Part shown: one piece after another, positions 2 through 50,744 of the stretch
How positions within the stretch are numbered: position 1 is the first letter of the stretch
Layout of the letters: each line of letters begins with the position of its first letter
Source: a virus
Taxonomy: Duplodnaviria > Caudoviricetes
Virus record (IMG/VR): IMGVR_UViG_3300005077_000489
Location: 128,001-192,000 of that record
Strand: one strand, 5' to 3'
Length of the DNA stretch: 64,000 nt
The notes under the pieces: generated by a model
Databases searched by the model: none
Seen by the model: only the letters and a program-made list of their open reading frames with translations
Told to the model about the DNA's origin: nothing
Translations under genes and position numbers: made by a program

Positions 2-3000
2 TTTGACTCTAATTATGGTTCGTGGTATGATTGCGTTAGACTATCTGAGATTGAAATAGCAGATGATATTGACATTCTAAAAGGCTGCGGGTTGATCGGA
101 GAGATACCGGGTTTCGATGCTAAATATCTCTTGGACTCGCAAAGTTATACACAATATGTTAGTTCTGGTACCATTGGTCTAGGAGCACTACATATAGGAT
201 TAGATGCTAGAAATAGACCTAAGAAATTGAATCGATTCCAAGTAAAGTCTATCAGTAGTGCTATCACTGATACTAGTGATGACCCTTGGTTAAGGGTTAG
301 TCCCAAAGATATCTTAGTTTATGGTTCCAATATAGCTAAGCCTACTTTGAATACGGATACTGGTTGGACCTTAATAACTACTACCGGTATAGCACTACCA
401 CAAGCGGGGGCTGTTTATAGTAGTTGGGTAGGCGTGGTAGCTTCCGACAACTATACTACACCTACAATTAAATCTCCCACTATGACGGGGTATACTACTC
501 CTGCTCCCTATAGTGCTTCTGCTACTTCTATTAGGGGAACATTTCACGAGCCCTGGCGGGCCTTCGATAGGGATATATCCGACAGTTCTTATGGCTGGGC
601 ATCAAGTTCAATTTTGACTTTACCACAATCATTATCCATTTATTTAGGCAGCCCTATTATTATAAATGCTATTAGGTTACGTCCTTATAGTGGTGTAATG
701 TATTCTAGTTTTCCTGAGACTATAAAAATGTACGGTAGTAATATATTGAGTCCCTCTATAACAAACGAGGCACATTGGTCAGAAATTACTGACTATATTT
801 CTATTCCCGATCCTGGCGGCTTCGCGTGGACAACCTGGGTTTATTTTGATAACCCTGATGAATATTCTAGTTATAAGATTACTGTCTTTGAAACAATTAC
901 AGGGACTCCCGATTGTGGTTTCAATGAGATATATTTAGGTTATAGGGAAAAGTTATTTCCGAATCCGGCTGATATTCCTTATCGTCATTATAAATTAAAA
1001 ATAACATCCTCCCATGGTGGTACTTCTTCTAACGTCGAGTTTTCTGATTTAAATCTTGACTATGACGAGAGCAGTTATTATCAACAAACAGTAAATTACA
1101 ATATTGACTTTCCAGTAAAGATTTTTGATTTACCCCCAAAACATGAGGTGACCGGAGTAAATATAACAACTATTAGCGGTTACAAAGGAGGTTATTCTGA
1201 GCAGGTAGGTTCTACGGTTAGTGGTACTTATCCAATTAGTTTTATAACTATCGTTGATAGGCATAATAAACTAGAGAATGATAAGTCTATAAGTCAAATA
1301 GGAGTCTCCAGTGACATAGGTGGACGTATCTATTTCAGAATATTCGAAGAATATACGGAGGGCTCCACCGAGAGATTTACTATATGGGATGTATTTAGTG
1401 TTACTCATAGTGGAGGCGGTTTTCAGTGGTTTACTTTGACAGACCCTTATATAATTCCTAGTGAGGGAAATCATTACTTAGGGTGGTATCAGGCTAATAA
1501 CCCTAGAAAAATGGGTGTAACGGGCGGTGAAGGTAAAACCTCTTATCAGTATGGAGATTATATTGGAACTAATATTTATCTACCGTTGCACCATACCGAT
1601 TTCCTACCTTCTTTAGCCGTAAGGTATAACAGTTATTTTGATTTAGGAATAACTACCAATAGCGGTCTATTATTAAATAATTTCAGTCCTGCTCGTAACA
1701 GCAAGATATTTAATAGTTCAAATACGCTGGGACCTTATTATGACGAGACTGTTTCTATATACTTAGGTCGTCCTAGTCCAGTCGTGGAACCTAATACTCA
1801 AGGGTCTATGCTGGTAACTATTTATTACAAAGAAGAGGGTGAGGATAACTATGGGTTATCACAATTGGTAACAATAAAAGATAGTTCTCATAAAATGTAT
1901 GACCACCCTATAAACAATGCTTTTGATTCCGATAGTAAAAACTATTTTAGTCCAGAGAAATGGTTGGATGAATACCAAAATCTCAGGTTTATGCTGCGTT
2001 TTTATGACCCCGTATATTTGGAAGCTTTCTCTGTTGCACCGGCACAGGTGTCAAACGGAATAGATTGCTTACCAGACTCCTTGATGATTGCTGGTTCCGA
2101 AGACTATGCTAGGTTGTATGATGCAGAGGATTGGACTGATTTATATTTTGATGAGGATTACTCAATTCCTACAATAAGTGATTGGAAACCGTACATATAT
2201 TTTGATGACCACACAACGCAATACCGTTATTATAATTTTACATTGTGGCATTATGGTTATCCACAAAAGTATGGTATGTTGGGTGGGGTAAGGGTTGTTG
2301 GCGTTCTTCCATACCCAACTTATGTTACCACATCTGGTTTGCTAACGACGGTACGAAGTATAACAGGCGACGGAAGGGATGCTAATGAAGTAAGATTATT
2401 ACATAAGAGCGGAGATAGAAGGTATATTAATAATATTTGGAATACTTATACATACAACGGACGTAATGAAGTTTCTCCTGGAACTGTGTTTTTGATGGGA
2501 GAAAATAACATGTCTACTACGTGCCCGCATCCCGTCTCAGTAATCAAAGAATATAATGGTAATCGTAATGAATTACCTGTATCCCCAGTAGAATTTGGTG
2601 GATTAAATATTCTTGCTTGGCATAAGTTTGAAGAGGAGACCGGTAATTTTATAGATTACTCTGGTAATAATATTAATGTGGTGCGAGTAGGGAATATAAT
2701 TATAGAAGATGGTAAGCGGGGGAAGGCGGCTAAAATAGTAGATTCTGATAGTCCTCCAAAATATGGTGTGTTTACATTACCACATCATTTGACTGAATAT
2801 AGTGTTTCCTTTTGGTTCAGACCAGTTCATGACATATATCCTGGATATCCAATAACTTTTGATATAATGGGTGGTTGGGTTTCTTATGGTAATGTACCGG
2901 GTGTGTGGCATATATCATTAGGTCGAACTTATTTATATGTGGATTCTCCTTATCCCTTTAGACAAGAGAATACTTTACCACTAGGTTCTTCGCATTCTAC

Positions 3001-6000
3001 CAAGATCTTTTTTGGTAATTATGGGAAGGTTATCTATACAGGGAGGGAAGTGTGGAGTAAGAAGTCCTGGCATAATATCATATTTTCATTCGATTCCGAT
3101 GGGGACTATAAAGTATGGGAGGACGGAACATTAGATTATGAGTCTGGAACTCTATCCTCGACCATCTACCCACCGCCACCTGAGATAATTGTAAATCCGG
3201 CTGATATACATTATGATAACTATGACTTTAATAATTGTATGTATTATGGTTTACCTTGGATAGACGGTCAAGGTGCCGTGGGAGAGTTTTATTTGGACCA
3301 CGTAATGCATTTTAATAAAGTTTTTACAGATGAAGAAGCCTTTACAATATATAGATTAAAAGATAATTCGGAAGAGTGGGATGGAATATATTTTAATAGT
3401 CCACAGAACATAGAGTTACCTAGTAAATTAATATTTGATTTTGGACAAGATATCTCTGTTAATAAATATAGTTTTATTTTATCTAACACCCAAACATGGG
3501 CAGTCCCAAAGACCGAGTGGTTGTTAACTGCGTCTGGAGAGGATACTTGGGAGGTTTTGGATAATAATTACATTGAACTCGGAGAAATGCAATATATAGA
3601 GGGGGAATATATAGAAGAAACGAGGGAATTAACCATAAGTTCAGAAACCCTACCTCTTGCTATCTATTCTATTTATCCGGGCGAGCAGGTTATAGAGGTG
3701 TCGTTTGAGACTACAGAATATTTCAGTGGGGGTCACGACGGCACTTACGGTGGTATATATAATGACCCAGTACCAAATCCATTTTATGCTGCATACCCCG
3801 CAAATAGGACGTCCTTAATTGCAGGATATAATGTCTCTCAGGAGATGGTCAGGAATAATGAGTGGATTTCCTTGATACAAATAGTAAATTCGGTCAGCGG
3901 TTATATAAAATTTAAATTATGGAAATCCTCTCCTAACTCGTCTACGCATGTGATTGAGGATATCACCGATTTACTTCCTCTATCTGCCGGATCAAATAGT
4001 TATAATGTTCACTATAAGACTGGAATACCTTATCTAGGGGTTTCACCCACATTTTTTCCTGCTTTTTATGCTACTTGTGAAATAGACAGGCCGTATGGTG
4101 GGAGTGATCAGGACCAATATAATTATAAGTCCGGAGATATAACCGGCACTAGCACTGGCTGGACCAATATGGGTGGTTATTATACTTGCAGACTCCTTGT
4201 CTATTATCATGCTCCCAAATATAATTTAGGATTGGGTGCATCATCTAACTATTTTTATACAGCAGTTTCTTTTAATAATTTGTATGAGAGTCCTTTGACC
4301 CATTCTTATCCTTTACCTGTTAAAGATGTGATTCAGAATATCTATATTTATAGTAATAATGTTGTACAAGTAGATACGGAGGGCGTGTTAAGACTCACAA
4401 TTAAGAAAAAGATTCCTCCTCATAATCTTTTTACTGATTATGTGCACAATATTACTAATACTAAAGCATATCGACATTATGCTATAGAACTGGTAGGGAC
4501 CAATGATTGCAGAGAGAATTTAGAATTATCCGGTTTGAGAATGTTTGATACCCCTAGAGTTCCGACTGTCTCAGGTAATAGTCTTTCTGTTACCTCGGGT
4601 ATAGCTGCTAATAATATACTAGAATGCATTTCTGATAGTAATCCGGGTGATGCTGCTATAAGTTATGCTGTTTCCCTAGACAATATAGATTGGTGTATCA
4701 TGACGGCGAGCGGGTGGGAACCTGTCATATTAGATAAGGATGCTGTCTTGACACCTTCCGGTCTCTTCTTTAGTATAAATAATTGTGATTGGTTATCATT
4801 AGGTTCGGGAACGTTGTCTATTGCTCACAAGTTTGTAACTAATTCTAATTATTGTTATCCTGGAATAAATTCCTATAATGTGTTAGCCACAGACTACACT
4901 GCTTCAGGGACTGGCTCCTATATAACCTATAGTGGCAATATAACATATACAGTTCCGATGACTACTACTATTTCTAGTGATTGGTTGCATTATGCGTGGC
5001 AGAACTACGGAGATTATCATATTTTAAGCTATTTGGTTGATAGTGGTTACTTACCTATAGGTAGTGGTCAAGGTTATTTTGTAGATACATCTTATACGTG
5101 TAGCGGTTCTAGCCTAACACCATACATAATATCCAGGACTGATGATGTTATAAAAATAACTGCTTCTACTGTTGATGGTTTGAATATTGGTAACAAAATT
5201 AATATTGATACAGTATCTGGTTATACTATATATGAAGTAGAAGACATAATTGGAAATAATATAGTTCTTAATGCTCCTAAATTGTATGACGTTTTACCTA
5301 CTGATAGTTATTATAGACGCATAGTAACGCCTTACTATGAACTACGCGGGGAACAAGTTAATGTAAGTGGTACCGAAGTCAGGATTTCTGAGATGAATGA
5401 GGACTTAATAACTTTGAGTGGTAGTTTTAACTCAGGTGATATAGTAAATATTTCTTCCTCTAAAATTACTGGTAGTGGTATATTACCTACTACTATAAGT
5501 GGTAGATATTTTAATTTAGCAGACGGTGGTTACTACTTTTCTCCTGTTATGACATCTTTCTCGACCCCCGGTTCTTATACTATAGCTACTAATAAAATTA
5601 TAGCAGCGACGGAAGATTATACTATTAATGCGACTGATACATTTCCTAAGAAGATTTTTACTCTACCTAAAGATACAGTTTTGTTTGATACTATAATAAC
5701 AGTAAAGGATAGTTTTAGTGGCGATACTCCAGATACTTTTGGATATATAAGTAGCAATAAAACAGATAGTTATTACAACCGTTCTTATATAAATGATGGA
5801 ACTACGTTGACGAACGGGCGTTTAATAAGTCATTTTTGCTTATGGCAAGGAACGTCTAGTTATTATAGAGATGCTTATATGGGATTAAATATAAAAATTA
5901 AGTTGGTAAAACAAACTGGTGGCAGTAATCAGTATTATGATATACTAGACACAATTTGGGAAGGAGTAAACCCCGTATATGGTGATTTTTATGTTTATCT

Positions 6001-18590: not shown

Positions 18591-19822
18591 CTTAAATGTC
18601 AAATTTAGTTTATGTAATTAATAAGAATGGGAATCCTTTGATGCCTTGTAAACCTGCTAAGGCTAGGCATTTACTAGAGGCTGGTAAAGCTAAGGTTATC
18701 AAGCGTATACCTTTTACAATTCAACTGTTATGGAATTGTGAAGAGAATGTGCAGCCTATAACTTTAGGAATTGATAAAGGTTCCAAGATTACTGGTTTAT
18801 GTGTTGTAGAAAGTGACAATAGCAAAGTGTTATTTCAAGCAGATTTAAGACATCGTCTAGACGTTAAAGAAAAGATGGAGACGCGTAGAGAGCATCGTAG
18901 GTCTCGTAGGAACCGTAAATGGTATAGACCATGTAGGTTTTTAAATCGCAGTAGTTCTAAACGTATAGGAAGACTACCTCCTTCAATTAGAACCAATGTT
19001 GAGGAAGTAATCAGGGTAGTTAATAAGTTAAAAGTGATGTTACCTATAACCAGTATTGTAGTAGAAGATGTATTAGTGGATATAAGAAAATTGAATGAAC
19101 CCATAATTAAAGGTAAGCAATATCAAGTTTCTAATCGCCTATCTGAGAATTTGCGGCTAGCATGTTTAATGAGAGATAATTTTGTTTGTTATACGTGTAA
19201 GTCTAAAGGAGAACTACATGCTCACCACATTGTATGGAGGTCTAAGGGTGGTTCAGATACTATTACTAATTTGATTACATTATGTAAGAAGTGCCACAAC
19301 AAGGTACATAGTAATAAATTAACATTGGACTTACGAGGTTCTAACAATTTTAAAGACCGTATAGCACAACGTACAATGCAAGGTAAATCTTATCTTTATA
19401 GACAATTAGGAAATCCTGGGTTAGTTTATGGATATGAAACCGCTGAGCAGCGTAAGAAATTACAATTGGATAAAACACACATGATAGATGCATTTATAAT
19501 TGCTGGTGGTAATAAATATACAACTGATAACTCTTATTTCATAAATTTCAGACTTAGGCAAACTAGGCGACAATATTATGATTTGCCTAGAAAAGGGGTG
19601 GGTAGAGTTAGATATCAAGTCAATGAAGAATTAAATGGATTTAAAAAAGGGGATGTCGTTTTGGTAAAATCTTTTGTGAAACAAATTAATTCGATTCGTA
19701 GTGATGGACGCTTAGGTTTTTCTAAAAGCATAAATAGTGGACCACAGACGGCACTACCAAAACATTGTATATTACTAGAACGCCAGAAGACAGTTGTCTT
19801 TAATACAGTTAATATAAGGTAG
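18423..19822 (+). mobile_element. Non-autonomous IS200/IS605-superfamily IscB (OMEGA) element, no tnpA
   Basis: omegaRNA plus iscB inserted between two paralogous structural genes; no Y1 transposase in the window. Ends are approximate. Confidence 0.7.
18596..19822 (+). CDS. iscB: IscB RNA-guided endonuclease (PLMP, split RuvC, bridge helix, HNH), 408 aa
   Basis: N-terminal NGNPLMPC; RuvC-I LGIDKG; Arg-rich RREHRRSRRNR bridge helix; RuvC-II IVVED; HNH CYTC...HAHHIVWRSKGGSD...NLITLCKKCHNKVH; RuvC-III THMIDA. GGAGGA RBS at 18585. Confidence 0.95.
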   Translation: MSNLVYVINKNGNPLMPCKPAKARHLLEAGKAKVIKRIPFTIQLLWNCEENVQPITLGIDKGSKITGLCVVESDNSKVLFQADLRHRLDVKEKMETRREHRRSRRNRKWYRPCRFLNRSSSKRIGRLPPSIRTNVEEVIRVVNKLKVMLPITSIVVEDVLVDIRKLNEPIIKGKQYQVSNRLSENLRLACLMRDNFVCYTCKSKGELHAHHIVWRSKGGSDTITNLITLCKKCHNKVHSNKLTLDLRGSNNFKDRIAQRTMQGKSYLYRQLGNPGLVYGYETAEQRKKLQLDKTHMIDAFIIAGGNKYTTDNSYFINFRLRQTRRQYYDLPRKGVGRVRYQVNEELNGFKKGDVVLVKSFVKQINSIRSDGRLGFSKSINSGPQTALPKHCILLERQKTVVFNTVNIR

Positions 19823-24537: not shown

Positions 24538-27500
24538 ATGGATTGTACTATAAGTGGTGTAATAACAGGTTCTGGAACTTTAACTACGAGCGGTACAACT
24601 GTATCGGGCGGTTGCCCCTCATGCTCCGGCAGTCATTATGTTTATTATACTTATGCAATACCTAGGGAGTGCATCAATGCTACTACCACTTTATTTACTT
24701 CTGTAAGTGGACTAGAGCAGGATTATGTATTACAGACGCAACAAATACAAGATACGGTTGGTTTTGGTCCTATAGACATTGGTGAAGGTTTAATTGCATG
24801 GCATAGATTTGTAGAGTCAGATGGTTATTACTATGATTGGTCTTCAAACACTTATGATGCCCAAGCCTTAGGGAATGTAATTAATAGTGAGGGAAGATAC
24901 GGTCAGGGGGTCCGCGTCGGAGAATATCCCCATGGATGTATCTCTGCTCCTATACCTACCCAGAGTGGGAGCAACTATATGTTGTCATTCTGGTTGAAAC
25001 CCTCCGTTCTGCTTACTTCGGGTAATAATACTTCGTTCCGTTTATTTGAATCGGATACTTTCTATGGCGATCATTTCGCTGATTCTAATGACTACAATGT
25101 GCTACGTCCATATAAAGGGTGGACGCTGCTGAATACTACAACTACGGCTGTAGCCGGATATAATTCTACGTACCTTAGATTTAAGGGAGCGTCCAACACT
25201 AATTGGTTTTCTGGTACGTGGACAGCCTCTACAATATATTTTAATATAGAAAGAAACAGAGATTGGGATATAGAGACGGAACTATTAACAAACGAACTCA
25301 TTGGTGACCAGGCTGCTGGATTTATCTTTTTTGACCGTTTGTCTTATGTTAATTATTGTTCATTAATAATAGACTGTGATAACAATGCAGTTACCACTTA
25401 TGATGATTTGACTCCACCTATGGATGGGAATACATCCCCTACCCCTTACATAGTTGCTGCTACGTCAGAGAATAGTTCTAGTTATGCTGCTTATAAGGCT
25501 TTTGACCATTCTAATGATAGTTATGGCTGGAGGTCTAATACAGGATTACCAGCAGCCATATATTTTTATTTTGGTATTCCCATATATGTAACACATTATA
25601 GGTTTCGTAGTGTGAATGCGGCGGACAGTAGAGGGTTTCCTGCAAATTTTACTTTATACGGGAGCAATGCTGCCAGTCCTAGTGTTAGTGATGATGCCGA
25701 TTGGGTTCAGATAGACCAAAGGACATCTACTTCTTATCCAGGACAGGATGGGTATACTTCTTGGTTCGCTATTTCGTCACCTTCTTCTTATACATATTAT
25801 AAGATAAAGATTACGTCTGTTAGTAGTGACACTTTTGTTTGGATAGGTGAAGTAGAGTTTTCTGAGTATGAGTATACTCCGGCTACAGTTAGTGTTTTAG
25901 TCCAGACAGATTCCTTCTCTTATACTGTTTCCTCTAGTATCACCCAGGACTTATTATCTACTTTCAAGCTAGGTTTGGTGAAACGTGGTAATATAATAAC
26001 ATTTAGATACAAACCATATTACGCAAATTATTGGTTAGATACAATCTACGAGATGGATTGCTCTCTATGGAGTAATTCCATGGCTCTGGGATTGCAAAGT
26101 AGAAACCCATCGGGAGTTTCGCCAGAGATTTATTTTGATTATCTATCCTTTACTCGTGGTCTAAAACCTGATAACGTCGGGGATGAAGAAGCTCCTGGTA
26201 GATTAATTATATCATATAATGAGACTGATGTTTATGGGGAAATCGGGGTACGAGATGATAGTCGAATTTGGGCACAGACTACACGAAGTGGTCATGCTTT
26301 TGGTACCTCTACATATAATTGGGAACCGGATACTTGGTATTTATTACAGTTTGGTTTTGCTCCTGATGCTGCTGCCGGTGATTATACTTGGTGGGTAGAT
26401 GCGACTCGGGAGAATGGTTTACTGGTTGGGTCGGGTACCGGTGGGTCTTCTATTTATTATAATAATGTCATTAATTATTTTGATTCTTATCCTATGCCCG
26501 CCAGTGGAGTTTTTACTATTGATGAGGTTTCTCACTGGAGTAGGTGGCTGACTGCGGAAGAAATTCTTAGAATGTTAAACAGGGTTTCTCAATCTGCGTG
26601 GTTGGCAGTGGCAGATTATTTATATGGCAACGATAGTTTTTTGACTGCGGCTGTTTCCGTATCTGGAGGTTATGGTTTGTACTCCGATGTAAACCATAAG
26701 GATTTCTATTATCATACACAGTATCAAGCACCCTTATTACCACAAGCAGAAGTAACTTATAATAAGATTAGTTATAGGATACAGAAGGAATACAAGGTTG
26801 TGGCGGCTCGGATAGATGAATTTGTACTGAATATATTTAGATGTTCCAGTGGTTGGATAACTAATATGGAAGAATGTTTCAATTGTGCTAATAGTAGTGC
26901 TTGTCTCTGCGATGTCCGCGGCGGTATTGCTATTTATACCTTGCCGTTCTGGGGCAATCAATTCAATAAATTATTCCATATTATAAGCCGACAGAAGTAT
27001 AATTACAACAATGTGTTATTAATCCGTATAGATACTCTGACCGGGCAGTATTCAATCATGGGTTACGATTTAAATTCTCCCTATCCAACTTCTTTAATCC
27101 CGGCAAACAACCAGCGTATGATACATCCGGAATTATTATGGCAAGATGAACCAAATATAACTATAGAAATTTCTGATTTCGGTGGTAACCTCGCTGAGGA
27201 TCGGAGTCGTGTTTGGATAAAGAGAGAGAATGTTGGGTATAATACTTTTACTAAAATTGATGATTTCTGCTTTTATGAAGAAGACTTTAAATTACTACCC
27301 ACTTATTCAGGTTCTTTAGGGACGACTGTATCAGGGAATGGATGGACAATAGTAAATATCGATAATACTATATCTTGCAAGGTTAATGATAACTTTAATA
27401 GTAATGTTGTGTTGGATTATACTGACATAGTTGCGTCCGGGGTCGAAGGAAGTTTGACCACCTCTGGGCTCAACGATAGTTTGGAAACAATAAAAAATTA

Positions 27501-30216
27501 TACTTATTACTATAATCCTGAATGTTCTATAAGCGGAACTAGGAATCTAGAGGTGATAACAACAAGTGGTGCTTGGTCTAGTATTTTAGGTAATAATTTA
27601 ACGGCACCCTTTGCTTATCAACTCATACCTTCTACTGTTTCTGGGTGGGATTTTATTACTAAAGTAAATAGTTCTTTTGAGGGAGATACTAGAGGACAAT
27701 ATTGTGGGCTGATGGCTGCTTCACCGACAAACAATACTAAATATACTCAATTGTTACTTTCTCCGAGTGGTGTTATACTTAGACCGACACCCACGTTGAG
27801 TGGTGTTTATATTAATACTGGTAAAAATAGTTATGACCCCATCTGGTTCAAAATAAATAAGAACAATAACGTATTAAAATATTACTGGTCTCTTACAGGT
27901 AGTTCCTGGACACAGTATACGTCCGTGAGTGGAGAGTCCTTTCTTAATACTAATAACTTAGCAGTTGGTCCTGTAGTTATATCAGAACGAGCGGGATATG
28001 ACACTGGGGTTACAAAAGCCTGGTTTGAGTTTGTAAAATTTACCACATCTGGGAATAATACCAGCGAAATAAATTTTAATAATGGTGGGTGGGAACTCCT
28101 GTTAGAAGGTTCATACCCTGTTAATTCTATAGATAATTCCGGTTATGTAAGCTATACCAAAGTGGCTGACTACAGATATATTTTGAACTATGAACCAAAA
28201 GAGTCATTCGTGGGTGGTGAACAGGTCTATGTTCGTACAGAATCCCACGATGTGCCTAGTTTTAAGATAGACTATTCTTATGGTAATGACCTACTATTAC
28301 TCAAAGGTGACGGGGTCCACGGTCAAGTTGTGGACAGTAATTATGGAGAATTGGGGGCTAGCGGTATTAATACTGCTTTTATATTTGACTCCTCTTCCTA
28401 TAACTTAAAAACATATTCCGTATCAGGGACTAATAGTGTAACTACTACGACCGGTATAAAATATTTGGGTAATGGTTCCTTTTATTTCCCCACTAATATT
28501 GGTCTTACTACTGAGGCTGTGCCCTATGATTTATCTACCACTAATTGGACATTTCATACATGGATCAATACTACGTCCACTTCGGGTAGTATACTATCCT
28601 TTCTGCCTATTACAGGTAATAGTTTTATATGTAAATATTATAGTAGTAGGTTGAACTTCTTAAGTGGGACTACCCTATTAGGTTCTGGAACTATCTTTAC
28701 CATCCCTACTGGTTGGAACCACCTCGGTGTGATGCGTAATAATGATTATCTATATGGTTATTTTAACGGTAAGATGGTTGCTTCCTCATACATCGGTAAT
28801 ATTACGTTGGCTACAGCATCGGGTAGCAGAATAAAATTGATGGGTGATAATATAACAGGTTATCTAGATATGGTTACGTTAAAAGATAGCCCTATATTCT
28901 CTGATACTCTAGTATCAACAAACGATCTGGATATTATTACTTCTTTTAATATTGCTAGTAGTCATGGTTTCGAGGTTACGTTGAATTGTGTAACAGACGA
29001 CCATGCCCCCGTGGTTGTACCAGTAGACCCAGTTCCTTACCAACAATTAATATGTCCTTCGTCGGGTATTGTTTTTGATATCTTAGACGATTTTACAGGT
29101 GTGAAGTGGACACAAACCAGTATTATAATAGATGGTATAACTGTTTGGTCTGGCGGGAACAACATGACAGACTACTTCGATGATAGAGGCACATTGATAT
29201 ATGAGGAGACAGGGGAGAAGGGCGGTGAGTGGGCAGATACGCAAGGAACCTCCTTCGAAAAATCAGACGGGATAAACCGATTACTATATCCTCCTGGGAC
29301 AGTATACAGTGGTAGTGGTGCTTGGGGACGCCGTTATACATATTATTTACCCGATGCAACACAAATTAATTATTTTGGTAGAACAATAAATATTACGATA
29401 TCTGGCACAGACGATTTTGGCTACCTATCATATTTAGATAGTTTTTACCCTAATGAATTTTCTTATGATTACGAATTCAGTTTCATTTATAACACTAATA
29501 TTCAATTCGCGAATTGTTTTATGGTTCCTGGAGAAAGTTATCGTATAGATGAAATAGAAGCTCGCGGGTGGAACTTCTGTACAGATATATTTGACAGTGA
29601 ATATCCGGTTACAGATATAGATGATGCGGAATGTTATATAAATTTCAACGACGGTATAAATCAGTTTACTGCATCAGGGACTTGGATGACAACATGGACG
29701 GGTGAGTTAGGTACTACATCTGGTGTCTTCCATCGAATACAATGGTATCCGGATAATCATTGGAACTGGGGTGGTAACAGGGCGATGTACTTAACTATAG
29801 AAGCACATAATACGCATCCATATTGTGATGTCTATAACACCGTAGAGTATATATATTACTATGGTAAAGAAATTTGGTGGTATCACACCGCGAGGCGTAA
29901 TGATTTAAAACAATACCCTCCTTTTGATTTGAACCATAAGTTACCAGTTCTAATAGGCATAAAGACACAGGACTTTATACCTGAAACATTTTTCAGGTCT
30001 TATCTGTTCTGGACGCATCCCGGTAAAACATATGATTTGGGAGTTACACTGAAAGCTATACCAAAACCGACGAAGGATTTAAAAGTCGGTATACTGGCAC
30101 ATAGTCATTACTTACAATATAGTGAGGATGTTGATGTAGAAATCTATTGTAAAGATTTAGATGGAAATGAAATAACATATACGTGGATTTTTACCACGGA
30201 AGATAAACCAAATTAA
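24538..30216 (+). CDS. Giant structural/adhesion protein (1892 aa): two LamG, two DUF1349/ConA-like, one discoidin and several Ig-like domains, partly nested
   Basis: LIAWHRF...SFWLKP and IDEVSHWSRWLTAEE (split LamG); AYKAFD...YGSN...YYKIKIT (discoidin); LLLLKGDG...FIFDSS...WTFHTWI...WNHLGVMR (LamG); DDHAPVV (Ig). Confidence 0.8.
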   Translation: MDCTISGVITGSGTLTTSGTTVSGGCPSCSGSHYVYYTYAIPRECINATTTLFTSVSGLEQDYVLQTQQIQDTVGFGPIDIGEGLIAWHRFVESDGYYYDWSSNTYDAQALGNVINSEGRYGQGVRVGEYPHGCISAPIPTQSGSNYMLSFWLKPSVLLTSGNNTSFRLFESDTFYGDHFADSNDYNVLRPYKGWTLLNTTTTAVAGYNSTYLRFKGASNTNWFSGTWTASTIYFNIERNRDWDIETELLTNELIGDQAAGFIFFDRLSYVNYCSLIIDCDNNAVTTYDDLTPPMDGNTSPTPYIVAATSENSSSYAAYKAFDHSNDSYGWRSNTGLPAAIYFYFGIPIYVTHYRFRSVNAADSRGFPANFTLYGSNAASPSVSDDADWVQIDQRTSTSYPGQDGYTSWFAISSPSSYTYYKIKITSVSSDTFVWIGEVEFSEYEYTPATVSVLVQTDSFSYTVSSSITQDLLSTFKLGLVKRGNIITFRYKPYYANYWLDTIYEMDCSLWSNSMALGLQSRNPSGVSPEIYFDYLSFTRGLKPDNVGDEEAPGRLIISYNETDVYGEIGVRDDSRIWAQTTRSGHAFGTSTYNWEPDTWYLLQFGFAPDAAAGDYTWWVDATRENGLLVGSGTGGSSIYYNNVINYFDSYPMPASGVFTIDEVSHWSRWLTAEEILRMLNRVSQSAWLAVADYLYGNDSFLTAAVSVSGGYGLYSDVNHKDFYYHTQYQAPLLPQAEVTYNKISYRIQKEYKVVAARIDEFVLNIFRCSSGWITNMEECFNCANSSACLCDVRGGIAIYTLPFWGNQFNKLFHIISRQKYNYNNVLLIRIDTLTGQYSIMGYDLNSPYPTSLIPANNQRMIHPELLWQDEPNITIEISDFGGNLAEDRSRVWIKRENVGYNTFTKIDDFCFYEEDFKLLPTYSGSLGTTVSGNGWTIVNIDNTISCKVNDNFNSNVVLDYTDIVASGVEGSLTTSGLNDSLETIKNYTYYYNPECSISGTRNLEVITTSGAWSSILGNNLTAPFAYQLIPSTVSGWDFITKVNSSFEGDTRGQYCGLMAASPTNNTKYTQLLLSPSGVILRPTPTLSGVYINTGKNSYDPIWFKINKNNNVLKYYWSLTGSSWTQYTSVSGESFLNTNNLAVGPVVISERAGYDTGVTKAWFEFVKFTTSGNNTSEINFNNGGWELLLEGSYPVNSIDNSGYVSYTKVADYRYILNYEPKESFVGGEQVYVRTESHDVPSFKIDYSYGNDLLLLKGDGVHGQVVDSNYGELGASGINTAFIFDSSSYNLKTYSVSGTNSVTTTTGIKYLGNGSFYFPTNIGLTTEAVPYDLSTTNWTFHTWINTTSTSGSILSFLPITGNSFICKYYSSRLNFLSGTTLLGSGTIFTIPTGWNHLGVMRNNDYLYGYFNGKMVASSYIGNITLATASGSRIKLMGDNITGYLDMVTLKDSPIFSDTLVSTNDLDIITSFNIASSHGFEVTLNCVTDDHAPVVVPVDPVPYQQLICPSSGIVFDILDDFTGVKWTQTSIIIDGITVWSGGNNMTDYFDDRGTLIYEETGEKGGEWADTQGTSFEKSDGINRLLYPPGTVYSGSGAWGRRYTYYLPDATQINYFGRTINITISGTDDFGYLSYLDSFYPNEFSYDYEFSFIYNTNIQFANCFMVPGESYRIDEIEARGWNFCTDIFDSEYPVTDIDDAECYINFNDGINQFTASGTWMTTWTGELGTTSGVFHRIQWYPDNHWNWGGNRAMYLTIEAHNTHPYCDVYNTVEYIYYYGKEIWWYHTARRNDLKQYPPFDLNHKLPVLIGIKTQDFIPETFFRSYLFWTHPGKTYDLGVTLKAIPKPTKDLKVGILAHSHYLQYSEDVDVEIYCKDLDGNEITYTWIFTTEDKPN

Positions 30217-45300: not shown

Positions 45301-48300
45301 TCTGGTAATCCTTTTTCAGATACATTTAGATGGAACGAACCTAAAGATCCTTTTAGTAATTGGAATATTTTTAACTGGGCTAATTCAGAGGAAATAACTG
45401 TAGACAGCGGCACCCTAAATTTCTCTGTCTCTTCTAAAGCACCAAATGTAGAGCGTGGACAGTGGTTAAATCCTACCTATTTTCAAGATGTACAAAAAGA
45501 ATCAACCTTTTATTTGGAAACAAAAGTACCCACCGCTGTAGCACAAACTGCTGGCGTCGATGTGTCTGCTGGAATAGTCCTATGGGATGATAATGATATA
45601 AATAAATATGTTCGTTTAGAGCGTTACTCAGGAAATAATGTATCTACAGTGTCCGGGCTTTCTTACGGCGATTTAATACATTTAGATGTGCCCTTTGGTG
45701 ATTACATACGTTACGGAGACCAATCATATTATACATTAATATCAGGAGTTAACCCCACAATATTAAGTGTTGATAGACCGGAGTATGGATTACTCTTTAG
45801 AATTGCTAAGAATGCAGAAAAAGTCGAATTTGCTTATAGATTACCGTGGGACACGTGGACTACAGTTAGTGCTTTCTCTTTGTCTGGTTGGTCAAAGGAT
45901 TTGCGTATTGGTGTATTTGGGTCCGCCCAGGCGGTTTCCAGAGATACCGTCGATACGCTGTGCGAAGTTAGTTTTGATTATGTATCATATAAGGCAAGTA
46001 CTAATAGGTATACAGAACCGTTCGACTACTATTTCGACTTCGACGACTTTGTAAACAACCACGGATTGTGGACAGCACACAATGCTGAGACAACCGCTAT
46101 TCTAAGCTCAACTGCAGCATCAGGTATACATATAAAAAGACACTTTGGTAGAGGAACCTATAGTTTTTTTGACAAATATTTAAACAGTCCTGCGTTACTT
46201 ACGGATTGGGGGTCCACAAAAGATTATAGTGATGCGTGGTTTAGGATAGCGGACTATGACGAGACCACCCTAGCCACAGGTACTTTAACAGCAGGGGTAC
46301 TAATCAGAGATGCTGGTAATCCTCTAGTAAATTATGCTATATATGGTCTCAATAAACCCGATAGATTATTATTAACAATAACCGGTAGTAATTATTATAT
46401 ACCGATAGATCCAATTACTAGCACATCTGGAATTTATCTAAGTGTACAGAAGGGTGTAAATGTATTGATATTTAATTATTCTTACGATGGTAATATCTAT
46501 AATGTTGCTTCGGGTATAACTACGTATGGATGGTCACAGGAAACGGCAGTAGAACTAGGGTTTTCCTCAGATTTTAATGATGTTACATTTAGTAATATAG
46601 AAGTAGGAGCGTCTATGTTTGGTGCCACAGATGTAACTGCTGAGTTTGAACCGCCCTTACCGGTGCTTAATATTTATGGGCGGGGAGGAGATATTACTAA
46701 TATACAGTATGCTACTACTGTGACTGGTATAGAATATACTACTTTTTCTGATGTATCACCACCTACAACTAAGTTTATAAAATTTACTAAATCGAGGGAC
46801 GTCGAAATAGATACTAATGCGATAAAAGTAATACCAGACCCTAGAATGGCTAAGGCAGTGGGATATCCTTTACAACAGTTAGAAATTCCAGATTATAATC
46901 AGCAATTGTATGATTATGCCGGTAATATACAAATATCTGATGGGCTAGTTACTTCTTCCGGCGGAGGCTGGTCTCAAGATTTAACATATAAAGGTATTCC
47001 ACAGTTTGATATACCTGTTATGGCTATAGACTTGGGGAGTATATTTGAGTTAGGACGTAACCCCTTGTCCATATCTTCCGCTAAAGGACGTTTTTCAGAC
47101 AGTAATACTGATTATTTGATAGATGTCAGTTGGCCCTCTGTATCCTACGACGAATGTGGTTTTAAAAGGAAATGTCTTTATAGTTCTAATAATGAGTGTA
47201 CTGCCACGATAGAGTGGGGTAAACCCAAGATGATTTACGAAGGGGAACAGGGATCTATAGACTATTATTTTGCTGGTGAGTGTAATGGTGTTTCCACAAC
47301 TGCGGGGAGTGTAAACAAAGCCTGCCCACTGTTCAATTCGGGGAGGGGTCGTTGGTGGTTATTAGAGAGTACCAATTACAGTAATACTACGGTTTCCGCT
47401 GGTGCCGTGTGGTTCCTAGGTCCTCTAGAAATTAATCATATACAGAAACCATATCCCATAACTAATAATATAGACTGGTGGACAACTGACTATGGGCTCA
47501 TGCACTACATTGATAATACGGCATATTATCCGGATTATACGTTGGTTTATAGTTATCCGGGGCTAAATGTAGAAGGTTCTGTTTATTTTAATGGTTTGGG
47601 AAATCCCTATTGGAAACTTGCTACTGACCATGAATGGACTTTCGAGGACAAATTTTCTATTGATTTATCTTTGAATAATCCTGGTAATATTGATAAAATA
47701 GAAATACGTCTTGGAAGAGACCCGCAATGTTGCTGGTTATTTACTGTAACAGGTACATTGACACAGACATGGAGTAGTCATACATGGTTGTTCAAAGATG
47801 CGGAAGTTATTATAAATAGTGACATAGCACTAGAAGAACCAGTTTATACGCAGCACGACATGGAGTTTTATCAAATAGAAAATTCCCCTTATCGTCCATT
47901 GCCTTATCTAAACCATGGGTATGTGGAAGTAACTGTTTCTGGTAGTGGTTATTCTGACATTTATATGAAAAATATGAAGCACATCCGCTCCAGATTTGCC
48001 GACGATTACTTATTCCTCGGTATAAACGATTCTTTATATATTCCGGAGTTAGATTTAACCAATAAAGGAACCATACAATTTGATTATTATCCTTCTGAGG
48101 CTGCCGTTAATTTAGTTGAGGGAGACCCTCGTAGTTTCTTGTACTCTATTGCTACTGTTAGTAATGCTAATACAGGCTTGTGCTTGGTACTCAGTATGCA
48201 ATTTGGTTGGACTATCTATTGTTTTTCTCCAGAAGAGCAAGTAATATTAGACTTCTTACCCCCCAAGGATATTGCAACCCGGGTCATTCCTAGTCTATCT

Positions 48301-48795
48301 AATCCAGGTCCATTCCGTATTGTCATGAGCTGGTGTCCTCCCACTATTCCTGGACTGACTGATACTGTAGCATTGTGGGTTAATGGTTACTTGGTTTGTA
48401 ATGGCTTGTTTGAATCTTTGGAAAATTACTTCAAGACTGATGATATACGGGTGACATTAGGACGAGGAGCAAGTGTTTTTGATTACCAAGAAGACAATGA
48501 GATGGCAGCTTATGCAAAATTTAAAAATTTAAAAATCTATAAACAATCTGTTAGTAGACCTGACATAGATTTAGACAGCACTGCATTAATACCGGAAAAT
48601 TTATTTGAATTATCCACAGACGGTTCTACCTGGAAGTCCTTTTTAAATAATGAACTTCCTATAAAAGTACATGGCGTTGAGCACGGAGACTGTACTACTT
48701 TTTACTTGAGGAATATACGTCCTAGGAAAGAGATAAAAGCACTACATACTAGATTTACGGCTAATTTAGAAACTATGTGGGAGGTCTCTCAGTGA
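42307..48795 (+). CDS. Giant structural protein (~2162 aa) with CBM-like, DUF1349/ConA-like and LamG domains
   Basis: TAATG overlap at 42305-42309 favours this start. DGIWHRYSINM...W.G...LRL (CBM-like); SAGIVLWD...LRIGVFG (DUF1349-like); KGTIQFDYYP...LWVNG...KNLKIY (LamG). Confidence 0.8.
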   Translation: MSISEFNVNVESEYNVLNECRYIRNKDRCIYDSNVGYEARFDKGDNGFTDNFGMNWFMATGYFMWGISTQTSCYISLAEPLAYSFEADFFPDFDLDLLLRYDDNYVTLPTNLNARLIWKMETDADWHADAVVDFTVYPDGIWHRYSINMLEEPRWVGNCVDLRLYIFTDGAKDVEFIIKRLAFKSDYYFKCKFPPCAYNRSYKHPCQGVGTFARAYSSERRRTVKIDDDNSRLGVSIDRYPVKYIDLDLSHCIDCWSVAQDITLKLNTLSFGGYKFAECIYDDIEENFSIYTGTRGSSGSVEIYHGGEKDATEELGFSVSGTGVRAWRTEVGLDPVDGFQEAYQKLPASILYRLPNSTVTTINYDPAKPITEIGRSDLLGLPSETVFQESVIEGFIQIDIFGQSTYGGKIDYIEFKGEIISNKSRLLLLRPSSDSSFSVIYITTVDSSDMKRGQETVYKKSVDWNLKPGDVFGLYMCKPVIHTEDNPKLKPEMVYKYSWVEIRKYNIAVGDELSFSTKDIKFYGYESLPVYGYSNITNPGHGIEAELRYEYGISYASVIGDTNSDVIDINLMTIDSTQVRMSSSVSPGSLQSATDLDLAVEIDSETNDAFWIDFWFPGYIHTIYKMVTYYENVSNLRSFCWEFWAEEDERIGLQWNRFYTFLTEANPIGSAEWWIRLYDPAVVIINGWQDATGTPYLGANYVTADPNDYYPGVEEDIVTLRSDDATGVVWNKLEQTFFPIHTRGLRLYCWRWNSSKVTGVEIYAKFESAQSILQAIEAYGWSGPEVFSTEKYDIVDLEGQIWRSSNISRAETVDYKYDLDFQIQMDEDEATDILLSPVGTTLRKLDFDVKGLPARIQQIKLIGQKLAVRLEAGSEHEPITEVANLSWGAPSDGRDFTYGPSKEYRICNDTGHRANLILNIANPLAIDQACVFSSDLSSLASLEDPYRGIRAELICANDFEICNHRSINYHARAYSILAAEPISWYSTSTSGIVWQTLVSGNPFSDTFRWNEPKDPFSNWNIFNWANSEEITVDSGTLNFSVSSKAPNVERGQWLNPTYFQDVQKESTFYLETKVPTAVAQTAGVDVSAGIVLWDDNDINKYVRLERYSGNNVSTVSGLSYGDLIHLDVPFGDYIRYGDQSYYTLISGVNPTILSVDRPEYGLLFRIAKNAEKVEFAYRLPWDTWTTVSAFSLSGWSKDLRIGVFGSAQAVSRDTVDTLCEVSFDYVSYKASTNRYTEPFDYYFDFDDFVNNHGLWTAHNAETTAILSSTAASGIHIKRHFGRGTYSFFDKYLNSPALLTDWGSTKDYSDAWFRIADYDETTLATGTLTAGVLIRDAGNPLVNYAIYGLNKPDRLLLTITGSNYYIPIDPITSTSGIYLSVQKGVNVLIFNYSYDGNIYNVASGITTYGWSQETAVELGFSSDFNDVTFSNIEVGASMFGATDVTAEFEPPLPVLNIYGRGGDITNIQYATTVTGIEYTTFSDVSPPTTKFIKFTKSRDVEIDTNAIKVIPDPRMAKAVGYPLQQLEIPDYNQQLYDYAGNIQISDGLVTSSGGGWSQDLTYKGIPQFDIPVMAIDLGSIFELGRNPLSISSAKGRFSDSNTDYLIDVSWPSVSYDECGFKRKCLYSSNNECTATIEWGKPKMIYEGEQGSIDYYFAGECNGVSTTAGSVNKACPLFNSGRGRWWLLESTNYSNTTVSAGAVWFLGPLEINHIQKPYPITNNIDWWTTDYGLMHYIDNTAYYPDYTLVYSYPGLNVEGSVYFNGLGNPYWKLATDHEWTFEDKFSIDLSLNNPGNIDKIEIRLGRDPQCCWLFTVTGTLTQTWSSHTWLFKDAEVIINSDIALEEPVYTQHDMEFYQIENSPYRPLPYLNHGYVEVTVSGSGYSDIYMKNMKHIRSRFADDYLFLGINDSLYIPELDLTNKGTIQFDYYPSEAAVNLVEGDPRSFLYSIATVSNANTGLCLVLSMQFGWTIYCFSPEEQVILDFLPPKDIATRVIPSLSNPGPFRIVMSWCPPTIPGLTDTVALWVNGYLVCNGLFESLENYFKTDDIRVTLGRGASVFDYQEDNEMAAYAKFKNLKIYKQSVSRPDIDLDSTALIPENLFELSTDGSTWKSFLNNELPIKVHGVEHGDCTTFYLRNIRPRKEIKALHTRFTANLETMWEVSQ

Positions 48796-50744
48796 AAATA
48801 GTTGCTACCCAAGAAGGTATAGAAATAAACGGTGTATTTCTAAGTAATACATGGGAGATACAAACTTTTATTAATGCACATGCCCCTAGTGATTTGCAGG
48901 TTGGTATTGGAGCAGTAAACCCTATTGACTTACATGTGTTTTTCCGTGGTGTTTACTCATTTCCACTCCACGATTTATATGTAGATTTGGGTATTATTAG
49001 TCCTAAAGATTTGGAAGTAAACCTAGGTATAAACTTACCCATGACCCTTGCGGCAGTAATTGACAGCCACTTGCCAAGGGATTTATTAATTAGTACGTAC
49101 GCGGTGGCTCCACATGATTTATATGTAGAATTCTGGATTGCACACCACCATTATCTTGAATCCTTTATTAATTCTCACTCACCTGTAGATTTGCCTATAA
49201 ACTTTGGGATATTTAATATTTTAGCCTTGTCCGGTTACATTGGTGCTCATCCGCCGATGGATTTAGCGACGCTCTTACGTGTTGTGAAGACCGGGAACAG
49301 AGCACTCACTATTTATTTAGCTGCTAATAAAACTGGAATGTTAGATTTGACTTTAGATATGTATATTTGGGGGATGAGGCAGTTGGATGTGAATCTAGGC
49401 GGGCATCTACCAGAAGATTTAGATGTGGATGTATGGGTTTGGGGGTATCACGATTTACCTGCGTTAATAGAAACTGCATATCCGAGCACTTTAGCAGTAG
49501 ATATTATTCCTACACCAGAAGAGGGAGTTGATTTAAGGGTTCTTCATAGTGCCTCGCATACATCTTACTTTTCTGTTGTATTTGATACGTGGACTACATG
49601 GAAAGAATTAGCTGTTAATTTACTAGGTTTATATTCATACAATCTCGACGTTAATTTTACAATGGGCGGTTACTTACCATTGTATATTGATGTTCCTATG
49701 ACCACAGGATACAAAAATTTATTTGTAACATTAAAACCTTCTTCTAGAGTACAAACCACATTCATACCTATTTATACTATGGAAATAAGAGACTTAATAA
49801 TATCAATCAACCAAGGGTGGCCTTGTGGGTTCGGCTCATCATACAGATTATTAGAAGTTTATTGTAATCCTTCTTATTTCCTTAACTTCTCTGTCCCTTT
49901 CAAGGTCATACACGGGAGTGGTAACCCAGTCTTAGGTACATATATAAACAAACCTTATTTTGATACTTACATCAGGACTTATGCTTTGGAGTTTTGGTTA
50001 CCCGAGGATATTGTTTATCCTGATACTTTTATATCTGATGAAGTTGGTATAGTGTACGATAATGAGTTTGACGAAATAACTCAAGAAATTATAACTATTA
50101 ATTTCTCTTGGCCACGTTTCAGAAGATCAACAGGTAATCTTAATTTTTCAGTTTATGTAACCCCTTATAAACAAGACAAGTGGTATTCATTAAATGTTAT
50201 GCTTAGGGCAGTAAAACCAGATTTACCAATTATGCCACAATCGCAACCCTTAGTGCAACGAGACGGATATGCGGAGCCTGTCTGGCCACATGTGTTCCAA
50301 GTAAAAGAAATAGAACTCTGGTCAGAAGATTCATCGGAGATAGTGAGGGTGATAGAGTTAATGTTTGGTGAGCAAGTACGTAAATATTACTGGTTGTCCA
50401 GAACACAAACAGCATATGCTGCAGATGTCTTTGAGAGATGGACCCTGCTTGCCAGTGGTTATTTACCACACGCTGAATATAGTGGTCAGATAGATTATGT
50501 TACAATGCGAGAAATTAGTGACATGAAAAGATATAGCACAGTTGATGCTGCTGTGAAGGCTCTTCTATCTAATTTTCTTTACAGCGACCTGAAAAATCTA
50601 GAAGTTTCATTAATAGCCTCGGGAGGATACCACCTACTAAATATATATATGGACATATGGGGTAGAAACAGATTTAATAATCTATCAGTTAAAATAGAAC
50701 CTATGCATCCATGTGACCTTGAAGTCTCGATAACTTGTGTGTAA
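48792..50744 (+). CDS. Fibre/beta-solenoid-like protein with ~12-residue repeats (~650 aa)
   Basis: GGAGGT RBS and GTGA overlap favour the GTG at 48792. More than 20 repeats of x-D-L-x-V-x-I-x-x-x-x-P. Confidence 0.75.
   Translation: MKIVATQEGIEINGVFLSNTWEIQTFINAHAPSDLQVGIGAVNPIDLHVFFRGVYSFPLHDLYVDLGIISPKDLEVNLGINLPMTLAAVIDSHLPRDLLISTYAVAPHDLYVEFWIAHHHYLESFINSHSPVDLPINFGIFNILALSGYIGAHPPMDLATLLRVVKTGNRALTIYLAANKTGMLDLTLDMYIWGMRQLDVNLGGHLPEDLDVDVWVWGYHDLPALIETAYPSTLAVDIIPTPEEGVDLRVLHSASHTSYFSVVFDTWTTWKELAVNLLGLYSYNLDVNFTMGGYLPLYIDVPMTTGYKNLFVTLKPSSRVQTTFIPIYTMEIRDLIISINQGWPCGFGSSYRLLEVYCNPSYFLNFSVPFKVIHGSGNPVLGTYINKPYFDTYIRTYALEFWLPEDIVYPDTFISDEVGIVYDNEFDEITQEIITINFSWPRFRRSTGNLNFSVYVTPYKQDKWYSLNVMLRAVKPDLPIMPQSQPLVQRDGYAEPVWPHVFQVKEIELWSEDSSEIVRVIELMFGEQVRKYYWLSRTQTAYAADVFERWTLLASGYLPHAEYSGQIDYVTMREISDMKRYSTVDAAVKALLSNFLYSDLKNLEVSLIASGGYHLLNIYMDIWGRNRFNNLSVKIEPMHPCDLEVSITCV
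48849..49740 (+). repeat. Degenerate 12-aa (36-nt) tandem repeat array within the CDS
   Basis: SDLQVGIGAVNP, HDLYVDLGIISP, KDLEVNLGINLP, RDLLISTYAVAP, VDLPINFGIFNI, RQLDVNLGGHLP, EDLDVDVWVWGY, HDLPALIETAYP, etc. Confidence 0.85.

Follow-up and report, generated by a model that had tools for sequence, protein, structure and literature searches.

A predicted triple-nested lectin-type module in a tail-region protein of a Caudoviricetes virus and the variation of its domain cassettes among orthologues

Background

Insertion of carbohydrate-binding modules (CBMs) into loops of the galectin domains of phage Dit proteins is documented (PMC7291167, PMC9437275), and the resulting evolved Dits, together with the functionalised Tal proteins of siphophages of lactic acid bacteria, are among the closest described systems to the one considered here. 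They are typified by the Dit of Lactobacillus phage J-1 with its CBM2 (PDB 5ly8), in which the nesting is one level deep and the host is a galectin domain. Deeper arrangements are also on record. In the tail sheath protein gp18 of phage T4, domain I is inserted into domain II, domain II into domain III, and domain III between the termini, which together form domain IV (PMC3004832). A survey of 2026 catalogued proteins of the A1-B1-C-B2-A2 form, with up to six levels in cyanobacterial RNA polymerase, and found the inserts to be smaller than their hosts (PMC13114784). Here we describe P0001, a tail-region protein encoded in a 64,000-nucleotide stretch of viral DNA (hereinafter the window), which represents positions 128001-192000 of the 211,229-bp IMG/VR record IMGVR_UViG_3300005077_000489 (Duplodnaviria; Caudoviricetes; completeness estimate 86%). 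We consider it probable that aa 76-683 of this protein constitute a nested A1-B1-C-B2-A2 lectin-type module, which functions in adhesion to host-surface glycans and is remodelled by domain cassettes (Table 1).

Comparison with the above systems brings out both shared and distinctive features. Unlike in the evolved Dits, it is a LamG-like domain that acts as host in P0001, a non-Dit protein of 1,892 aa; the predicted nest is three levels deep (possibly four in the orthologues P0003 and P0006), and there are about 10 variable insertion sites, or sockets, in one family. Pfam, PHROGs and fold searches with both structural models recovered no Dit-like match to P0001, whether belt or galectin domain, a confident model being absent for aa 1-75, 684-880 and 1480-1892; by analogy, P0001 is treated here as working like an evolved Dit and not as a member of that group. 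T4 gp18 resembles P0001 in being a phage tail protein with a Russian-doll topology, and its outermost domains are solvent-exposed add-ons. It differs in its folds, in its function in a contractile sheath and in that its domains are not lectin-type cassettes and, unlike the cassettes of the P0001 family, are not known to vary in presence from one close relative to another. The SI3 region of the RNA polymerase β' subunit similarly consists of small β-rich domains nested in loops, and P0001 follows the same size order; however, SI3 comprises copies of one fold in an enzyme, whereas in P0001, a putative virion protein, three different lectin-type folds are predicted to be combined, and the cassettes are polymorphic among its orthologues. 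The CBM32/F5-8 type C modules of bacterial glycosidases (4zxe, 2v72 and the C-terminal module of 7nsn), which show 13-22% identity to the inner domain of P0001, are appended in tandem, whereas that of P0001 is inserted. Thus, nested insertion is a principle already established by the evolved Dits, T4 gp18 and SI3, and no new principle is introduced here; what distinguishes P0001 is that three different lectin folds are nested, and that its family shows an unusually full range of natural cassette states.

Three nested β-sandwich domains in the predicted structure of P0001

A 50-row alignment was used to generate an AlphaFold2 model of aa 60-700 of P0001 (model residue n corresponds to protein residue n+59), which has a mean predicted local distance difference test (pLDDT) score of 91.3 and a predicted template modelling (pTM) score of 0.78. 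VIA-align searches with this model against 48,161 PDB representatives recovered three classes of matches, whose model ranges lie one within the other (17..624 > 115..483 > 226..388). Over the outermost of these ranges single-domain PDB chains align with 191-206 residues. In the case of the middle domain about 185 residues of single-domain chains are aligned across a 367-residue span; for example, 170 residues of 3mep_A, a chain of 179 aa, align across the gap occupied by the discoidin-like domain. As these aligned lengths exceed either half alone, the model indicates that each split domain is one domain. The outer domain takes the form of a ConA-like/LamG jelly roll formed by one domain, and the middle domain superposes as a ConA-like sandwich on GH43 C-terminal domains and on 3mep_A. 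The inner domain superposes over its full length on solved CBM32/discoidin domains as an eight-stranded distorted jelly-roll β-sandwich, and Foldseek recovered CBM32 matches to it with template modelling (TM) scores by target of up to 0.89. The domains decrease in size from the outside inwards (239 > 206 > 163 aa). An A1-B1-C-B2-A2 order is seen in the model ranges and equally in the split profile matches and insert-less natural variants described below.

Searches for an analogue of the whole three-domain module returned single-domain matches only (best TM by query 0.23 in BFVD, 0.27 in AFDB clusters and 0.34 in the ESM Atlas); such searches are weak for multi-domain queries, and this null result is no proof of uniqueness.

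Table 1. Positions in the window of P0001, the parts of its nested module and the uninterrupted paralogues of its domains
Feature	Position	Strand	Remarks
P0001, tail-region protein with the nested module	24538..30216	+	single open frame, 1,892 aa
Outer domain, N-terminal part (aa 76-173)	24763..25056	+	LamG-like ConA jelly roll, as far as the strand with FRLFES
Middle domain, N-terminal part (aa 174-284)	25057..25389	+	GH43_C2/DUF1349-like ConA sandwich
Inner domain (aa 285-447)	25390..25878	+	complete CBM32/F5-8 type C (discoidin)-like β-sandwich; cassette absent from six orthologues
Middle domain, C-terminal part (aa 448-542)	25879..26163	+	VIA-align matches in common with the N-terminal part
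Outer domain, C-terminal part (aa 543-683)	26164..26586	+	ends in a conserved DEVSHW.RWLT.EE motif and a helix
Second GH43_C2/DUF1349-like ConA domain of P0001 (aa ~903-1172)	27244..28053	+	uninterrupted; paralogue of the middle domain
Outer-LamG paralogue in the 4,741-aa giant protein	2606..3349	+	uninterrupted; one contiguous match to the outer-domain profile

Sequence evidence for the split domains

The same organization can be traced by comparing P0001 with a 4,741-aa giant protein of the window, which carries an uninterrupted copy of the outer domain. BLASTP aligns P0001 82-178 with giant 867-964 (E 1e-6) and P0001 595-675 with giant 1018-1112 (E 0.035), and the gap between the outer halves is 417 aa in P0001 versus 54 aa in the giant. 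A hidden Markov model (HMM) of 238 positions, prepared from the outer-domain columns only of the orthologue alignment, recovered a single contiguous match in the giant (HMM 9-234 of 238, E 2.9e-14, aa 2138-2385 of the full giant open reading frame (ORF)). In P0001 it gave two matches, with HMM 3-98 at aa 78-174 and HMM 95-238 at aa 540-683 (E 1.8e-69), so that this in-silico excision of the inner domains finds the giant once and P0001 in two pieces. The second match of the middle-domain HMM in P0001 (HMM 41-194 at aa 385-541) overlaps the discoidin-like domain in its early part.

These results bear directly on a previous sequence-only reading of this DNA, in which a discoidin was proposed to split a ConA/DUF1349-like domain that itself splits a LamG domain, with the LamG halves aligning with the uninterrupted LamG of the giant. 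The collinear BLASTP matches and the outer HMM bear out the latter alignment, while the nesting is recovered in the AlphaFold2 model and the nested VIA-align matches; the domain boundaries agree to within about 10 residues (e.g. 25390-25878 for the discoidin-like domain here, as against 25402-25870). The motifs quoted in support of that proposal are all found where it had placed them, within the one ORF of P0001: LIAWHRF (aa 85), MLSFWLKP (148), FRLFESD (167), WDIETEL (243), QAAGFIF (258), LGLVKRGNIITFRY (478), MALGL (515), APGRLIISY (552) and IDEVSHW... (661). Their counterparts in the giant span aa 871-1098 of the window frame. Halves that form separate complete domains, which would have spoken against the proposal, were looked for in the models and not seen, single-domain PDB chains spanning both halves.

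The names LamG, DUF1349 and discoidin hold at the level of the fold, whereas at the level of sequence they are sub-threshold assignments. The PF00754 (F5_F8_type_C) match of the inner domain scores 16.1 bits (E 0.013 on P0001:280-500), below the gathering cut-off of 28.2 bits; among relatives this family is recovered in P0019 (E<=1e-5) and weakly in P0008. Similarly, Laminin_G_3 (PF13385) matches the outer C-terminal part at 15-15.8 bits (E 0.016-0.029; gathering cut-off 27.6 bits), with the match in P0001 extending over model positions 45-150 of 151 (E 0.016). It is detected in 7 of 16 family copies of this part (best E 1.1e-4), always below threshold, and the uninterrupted LamG copy in the giant gives no Laminin_G_3 match. 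A profile of the outer C-half recovered only chance-level matches among PDB sequences. For the middle domain, Pfam searches with P0001:60-300 and 470-700 showed no match to GH43_C2 (PF17851) or DUF1349 (PF07081). Its insert-less copies in orthologues and paralogues match GH43_C2 in 6 of 10 cases (best E 1.1e-6) and DUF1349 in one of 10 (E 2.4e-4), and the middle-domain profile recovered a GH43 beta-xylosidase C-terminal domain among PDB sequences (E 0.0035). In PHROGs the only match of the whole of P0001 is one family of unknown function, situated over the discoidin-like domain.

Relatives of P0001 and the variation of their cassettes

An exhaustive HMMER search of 1.84 billion representatives recovered 470 matches, mostly to the discoidin alone, among which are 13 long orthologues of P0001 (1,851-2,824 aa, 36-44% identity). 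These are all metagenomic predictions and together with P0001 constitute a family of 14 members. Megablast of the P0001 gene against 50,697 phage records gave no match, the only tblastn match was a 25%-identical discoidin in the Erwinia phages RisingSun and Joad, and a search for related loci in viral contigs found nothing.

According to BLASTP and the alignment, the full nest is present in P0002, P0004, P0005, P0009 and P0011. P0008, P0010, P0013 and P0014 lack exactly the region equivalent to aa ~279-452 (site A), and in its place have about 10 residues between conserved flanks. P0007 and P0012 likewise lack this region and possess another insert at a different place in the middle domain, between aa 206 and 213, which measures ~145 aa by BLAST coordinates and 100-112 aa in the alignment gap. 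Thus, the discoidin is cleanly absent from site A in 6/14 family members, with their reading frames open. P0003 (aa ~316-484) and P0006 (aa ~328-507) possess an extra cassette, which follows the first strand of the discoidin at site A (~165 aa by BLAST coordinates, 93-102 aa in the alignment gap). It is homologous to aa 810-942 of the product of ORF 45904-49179 of the record (E 1e-18) and to giant aa 950-1048. Judging from these alignments, these two proteins probably have a fourth level of nesting, LamG[ConA[discoidin[X]]]. The two cassette types other than the discoidin have homologues in giant proteins encoded by the genome of P0001 (E 1e-8 to 1e-18). P0019, an unrelated protein of 831 aa from other metagenomes, lacks the middle domain, and its discoidin is situated directly between the LamG halves.

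Over the whole protein family about 10 insert sites vary. In the second ConA domain of P0001 the cassette sites after aa ~1131 and ~1152-1154 are empty. At the former of these (site B1) a discoidin is present in 13/13 orthologues and at the latter a second one in 11 orthologues. The number of discoidins is one in P0001 (at site A) and one to four in its orthologues, each of which keeps at least one, though not always at the same site. Other cassettes are restricted to a single tip (after aa 900 and 1348 only in P0007; after aa 1297 only in P0012). Where insert sites were compared with the models (site A and after aa 206, 315, 1131 and 1152-1154), they all lie in loops or hairpin turns. The inner domain is also the least conserved region, with 23-39% identity as against 31-61% in its flanks.

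The sequence-only reading had further proposed that such proteins grow by iterative loop insertion, and that intermediates might occur among relatives. Intermediates were indeed found, in discoidin-less, alternative-cassette, extra-cassette and LamG-plus-discoidin-only forms. Given that cassette sites recur along the whole of P0001 and its orthologues as well as in the neighbouring giant, loop insertion is borne out as a mode of growth in this lineage; however, nesting is not the sole mode of growth of the discoidin family. In other genomes this family also occurs as head-to-tail arrays, with 26 copies in P0015 (5,398 aa) and 8 in P0018 (1,360 aa), i.e. it grows as tandem beads as well as by nesting.

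Direction of gain and loss

A tree computed from the scaffold columns only requires at least two changes in the presence of the discoidin, and places as sisters proteins with different cassettes (P0013 versus P0003/P0006, and P0010 versus P0012, which differ in the aa-206 cassette; both with 100/100 support). In the tree of the discoidins themselves the deep nodes are weak. As the scaffold tree is unrooted, gains and losses lack polarity on it. At site B1 the pattern is suggestive of a loss in P0001, both empty sockets of its second ConA domain are probably due to loss, and cassettes limited to one or two tips have the appearance of gains.

Proposed mechanism

According to the favoured interpretation, a LamG-like ConA jelly roll (A) would be broken at a β-hairpin by a GH43_C2/DUF1349-like sandwich (B), which would in turn be broken at a β-hairpin by a complete CBM32/discoidin-like domain (C), with the three sandwiches forming one compact, rigid and branched cluster on a tail-tip protein. 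Such a scaffold would keep the path of the chain short, the hairpin inserts would leave the host fold intact, and the distal loops of each insert would face outward to provide several putative glycan-binding surfaces. In discoidin domains the N and C termini are adjacent and the binding loops lie at the opposite end, making them suited to insertion in a hairpin. It is likely that whole-domain cassettes, gained and lost at such hairpin sockets, built up this module and continue to reshape it. The fast-evolving and relocatable discoidin would be the likeliest specificity element of a module with a putative role in sugar binding and adsorption. A bolder version of this idea is that the lineage has an active, targeted movement of lectin cassettes between sockets, amounting to a combinatorial plug-and-play system for host range as opposed to slow accidental recombination. 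The retention of the discoidin at differing sockets, the sisters differing in their cassettes and the recurrence of cassette types in giants of the same genome are compatible with this, but we regard it as improbable.

Alternative interpretations

The simplest alternative is that the domains are merely sequential, each LamG or ConA half being a small complete domain and the likeness to an uninterrupted LamG coincidental. The Laminin_G_3 match of the C-half alone, which covers 34/45-150 of the 151 model positions, can indeed be read as a near-complete domain. However, the outer C-terminal part has only ~141 residues as against the 191-206 that are aligned, so that both parts are required. Likewise, the outer HMM is split into 3-98 and 95-238 in P0001 but contiguous in the giant, 3mep_A extends across the discoidin gap, and the insert-less orthologues join the halves of the middle domain directly. 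Hence, we give this alternative hardly any credence. Another possibility is that a maximally nested ancestor has undergone nothing but deletions, or that the variation is due to errors of metagenome assembly, with no growth by iterative insertion in either case. This is in keeping with the site B1 cassette being present in 13/14 proteins and absent only from P0001, with the unrooted scaffold tree and the failure of the approximately unbiased (AU) test to reject site-A discoidin monophyly, and with the metagenomic provenance of all the orthologues. Yet, the cassettes confined to one or two tips (P0007, P0012, P0003/P0006) would need many parallel precise losses, derivation of the P0019 form from the nested form would need two exact deletions, and six independent insert-less proteins have open frames and conserved flanks. 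This alternative therefore appears very unlikely.

A somewhat less remote, though still unlikely, possibility is that the nest is real but is no lectin device, its domains being structural spacers or decoration, or the middle domain acting as a glycan-cleaving depolymerase for which the discoidin provides the targeting. The homologous C-terminal domain of GH43 enzymes (PF17851) is accessory to catalysis, and the middle domain shows fair conservation of a W-D/E-I/V-E strand motif; both points could be taken in favour of an enzymatic connection. However, no catalytic family was matched by sequence, and the W-D-I-E motif differs from the E-x-D-x-E of GH16 and is missing from P0011 and from the second copies of the domain. 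A GH16-type catalytic motif in the middle domain was considered and rejected, the pattern being different. Some observations also weigh against the nested adhesion module that we favour: Pfam recovers no family at E<=1 on the whole of P0001, and none of its three domains reaches the Pfam gathering score. Moreover, the remainder of the protein, which would hold the tail attachment, is poorly folded in the model of aa 700-1892 (pLDDT 52.8; usable only at aa ~880-1240 and ~1320-1420). The AU test does not reject monophyly of the site-A discoidins (p 0.085), and a single gain followed by losses at this site is as possible as repeated independent insertion.

Genomic context and other features of P0001

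All large ORFs of the window are on the + strand. Around P0001 the products are, in order, 458, 513, 661 and 385 aa, P0001 itself (1892 aa), and then 539, 214 ... 3141 aa. The orthologue P0008, on a 114-kb contig, is found in the same gene order (441, 519, 701, 393 / 2068 / 540, 214, 108, 3281 aa), i.e. the two loci are syntenic. Upstream of P0001 and outside the window there is a single open frame of 13,616 aa (record 74903-115750, +). If this is taken as the tape measure, P0001 would be placed in the tail-tip/fibre block. PHROGs searches with ten ORFs around P0001 gave a match for only one, a 408-aa ORF amid the structural gene block (18596-19822, +), which is related to HNH endonuclease families (phrog_2214, E 1.7e-47; phrog_119, E 2.5e-41).

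Certain features of P0001 lie outside the nested module. Long-range matches in the model of aa 700-1892 (257-269..759) were disregarded as unreliable. The C-terminal ~410 residues (aa ~1480-1892, window 28975-30213) rank with the most conserved stretches of the family, with many invariant residues, and blocks that include them reach 46-50% identity in several orthologues. There is no Pfam match in this region, and the AlphaFold2 pLDDT is below 50 for most of it; it is a candidate attachment or assembly domain. In the protein as a whole the dipeptide Ser-Gly occurs 40 times, as against an expectation of 15.3 +/- 3.5 on shuffling (no more than 30 in any of 2,000 shuffles), and many of these positions are kept in the orthologues. 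They could be sites of modification.

Biological implications

Proteins with split domains, such as P0001, are invisible to routine annotation, and the Pfam blank on P0001 exemplifies how the annotation of metagenomic giant phage proteins fails on such domains. Once recognized, the P0001 family offers a natural series of the growth of an adhesion protein, with an empty socket and one-level, two-level, three-level and probable four-level states across 14 syntenic orthologues. Predicted sugar-binding domains plugged into the hairpins of others would yield branched rather than linear arrays. Both the prediction of host range and its engineering also stand to gain, since the sockets show where insertion of a whole domain is tolerated.
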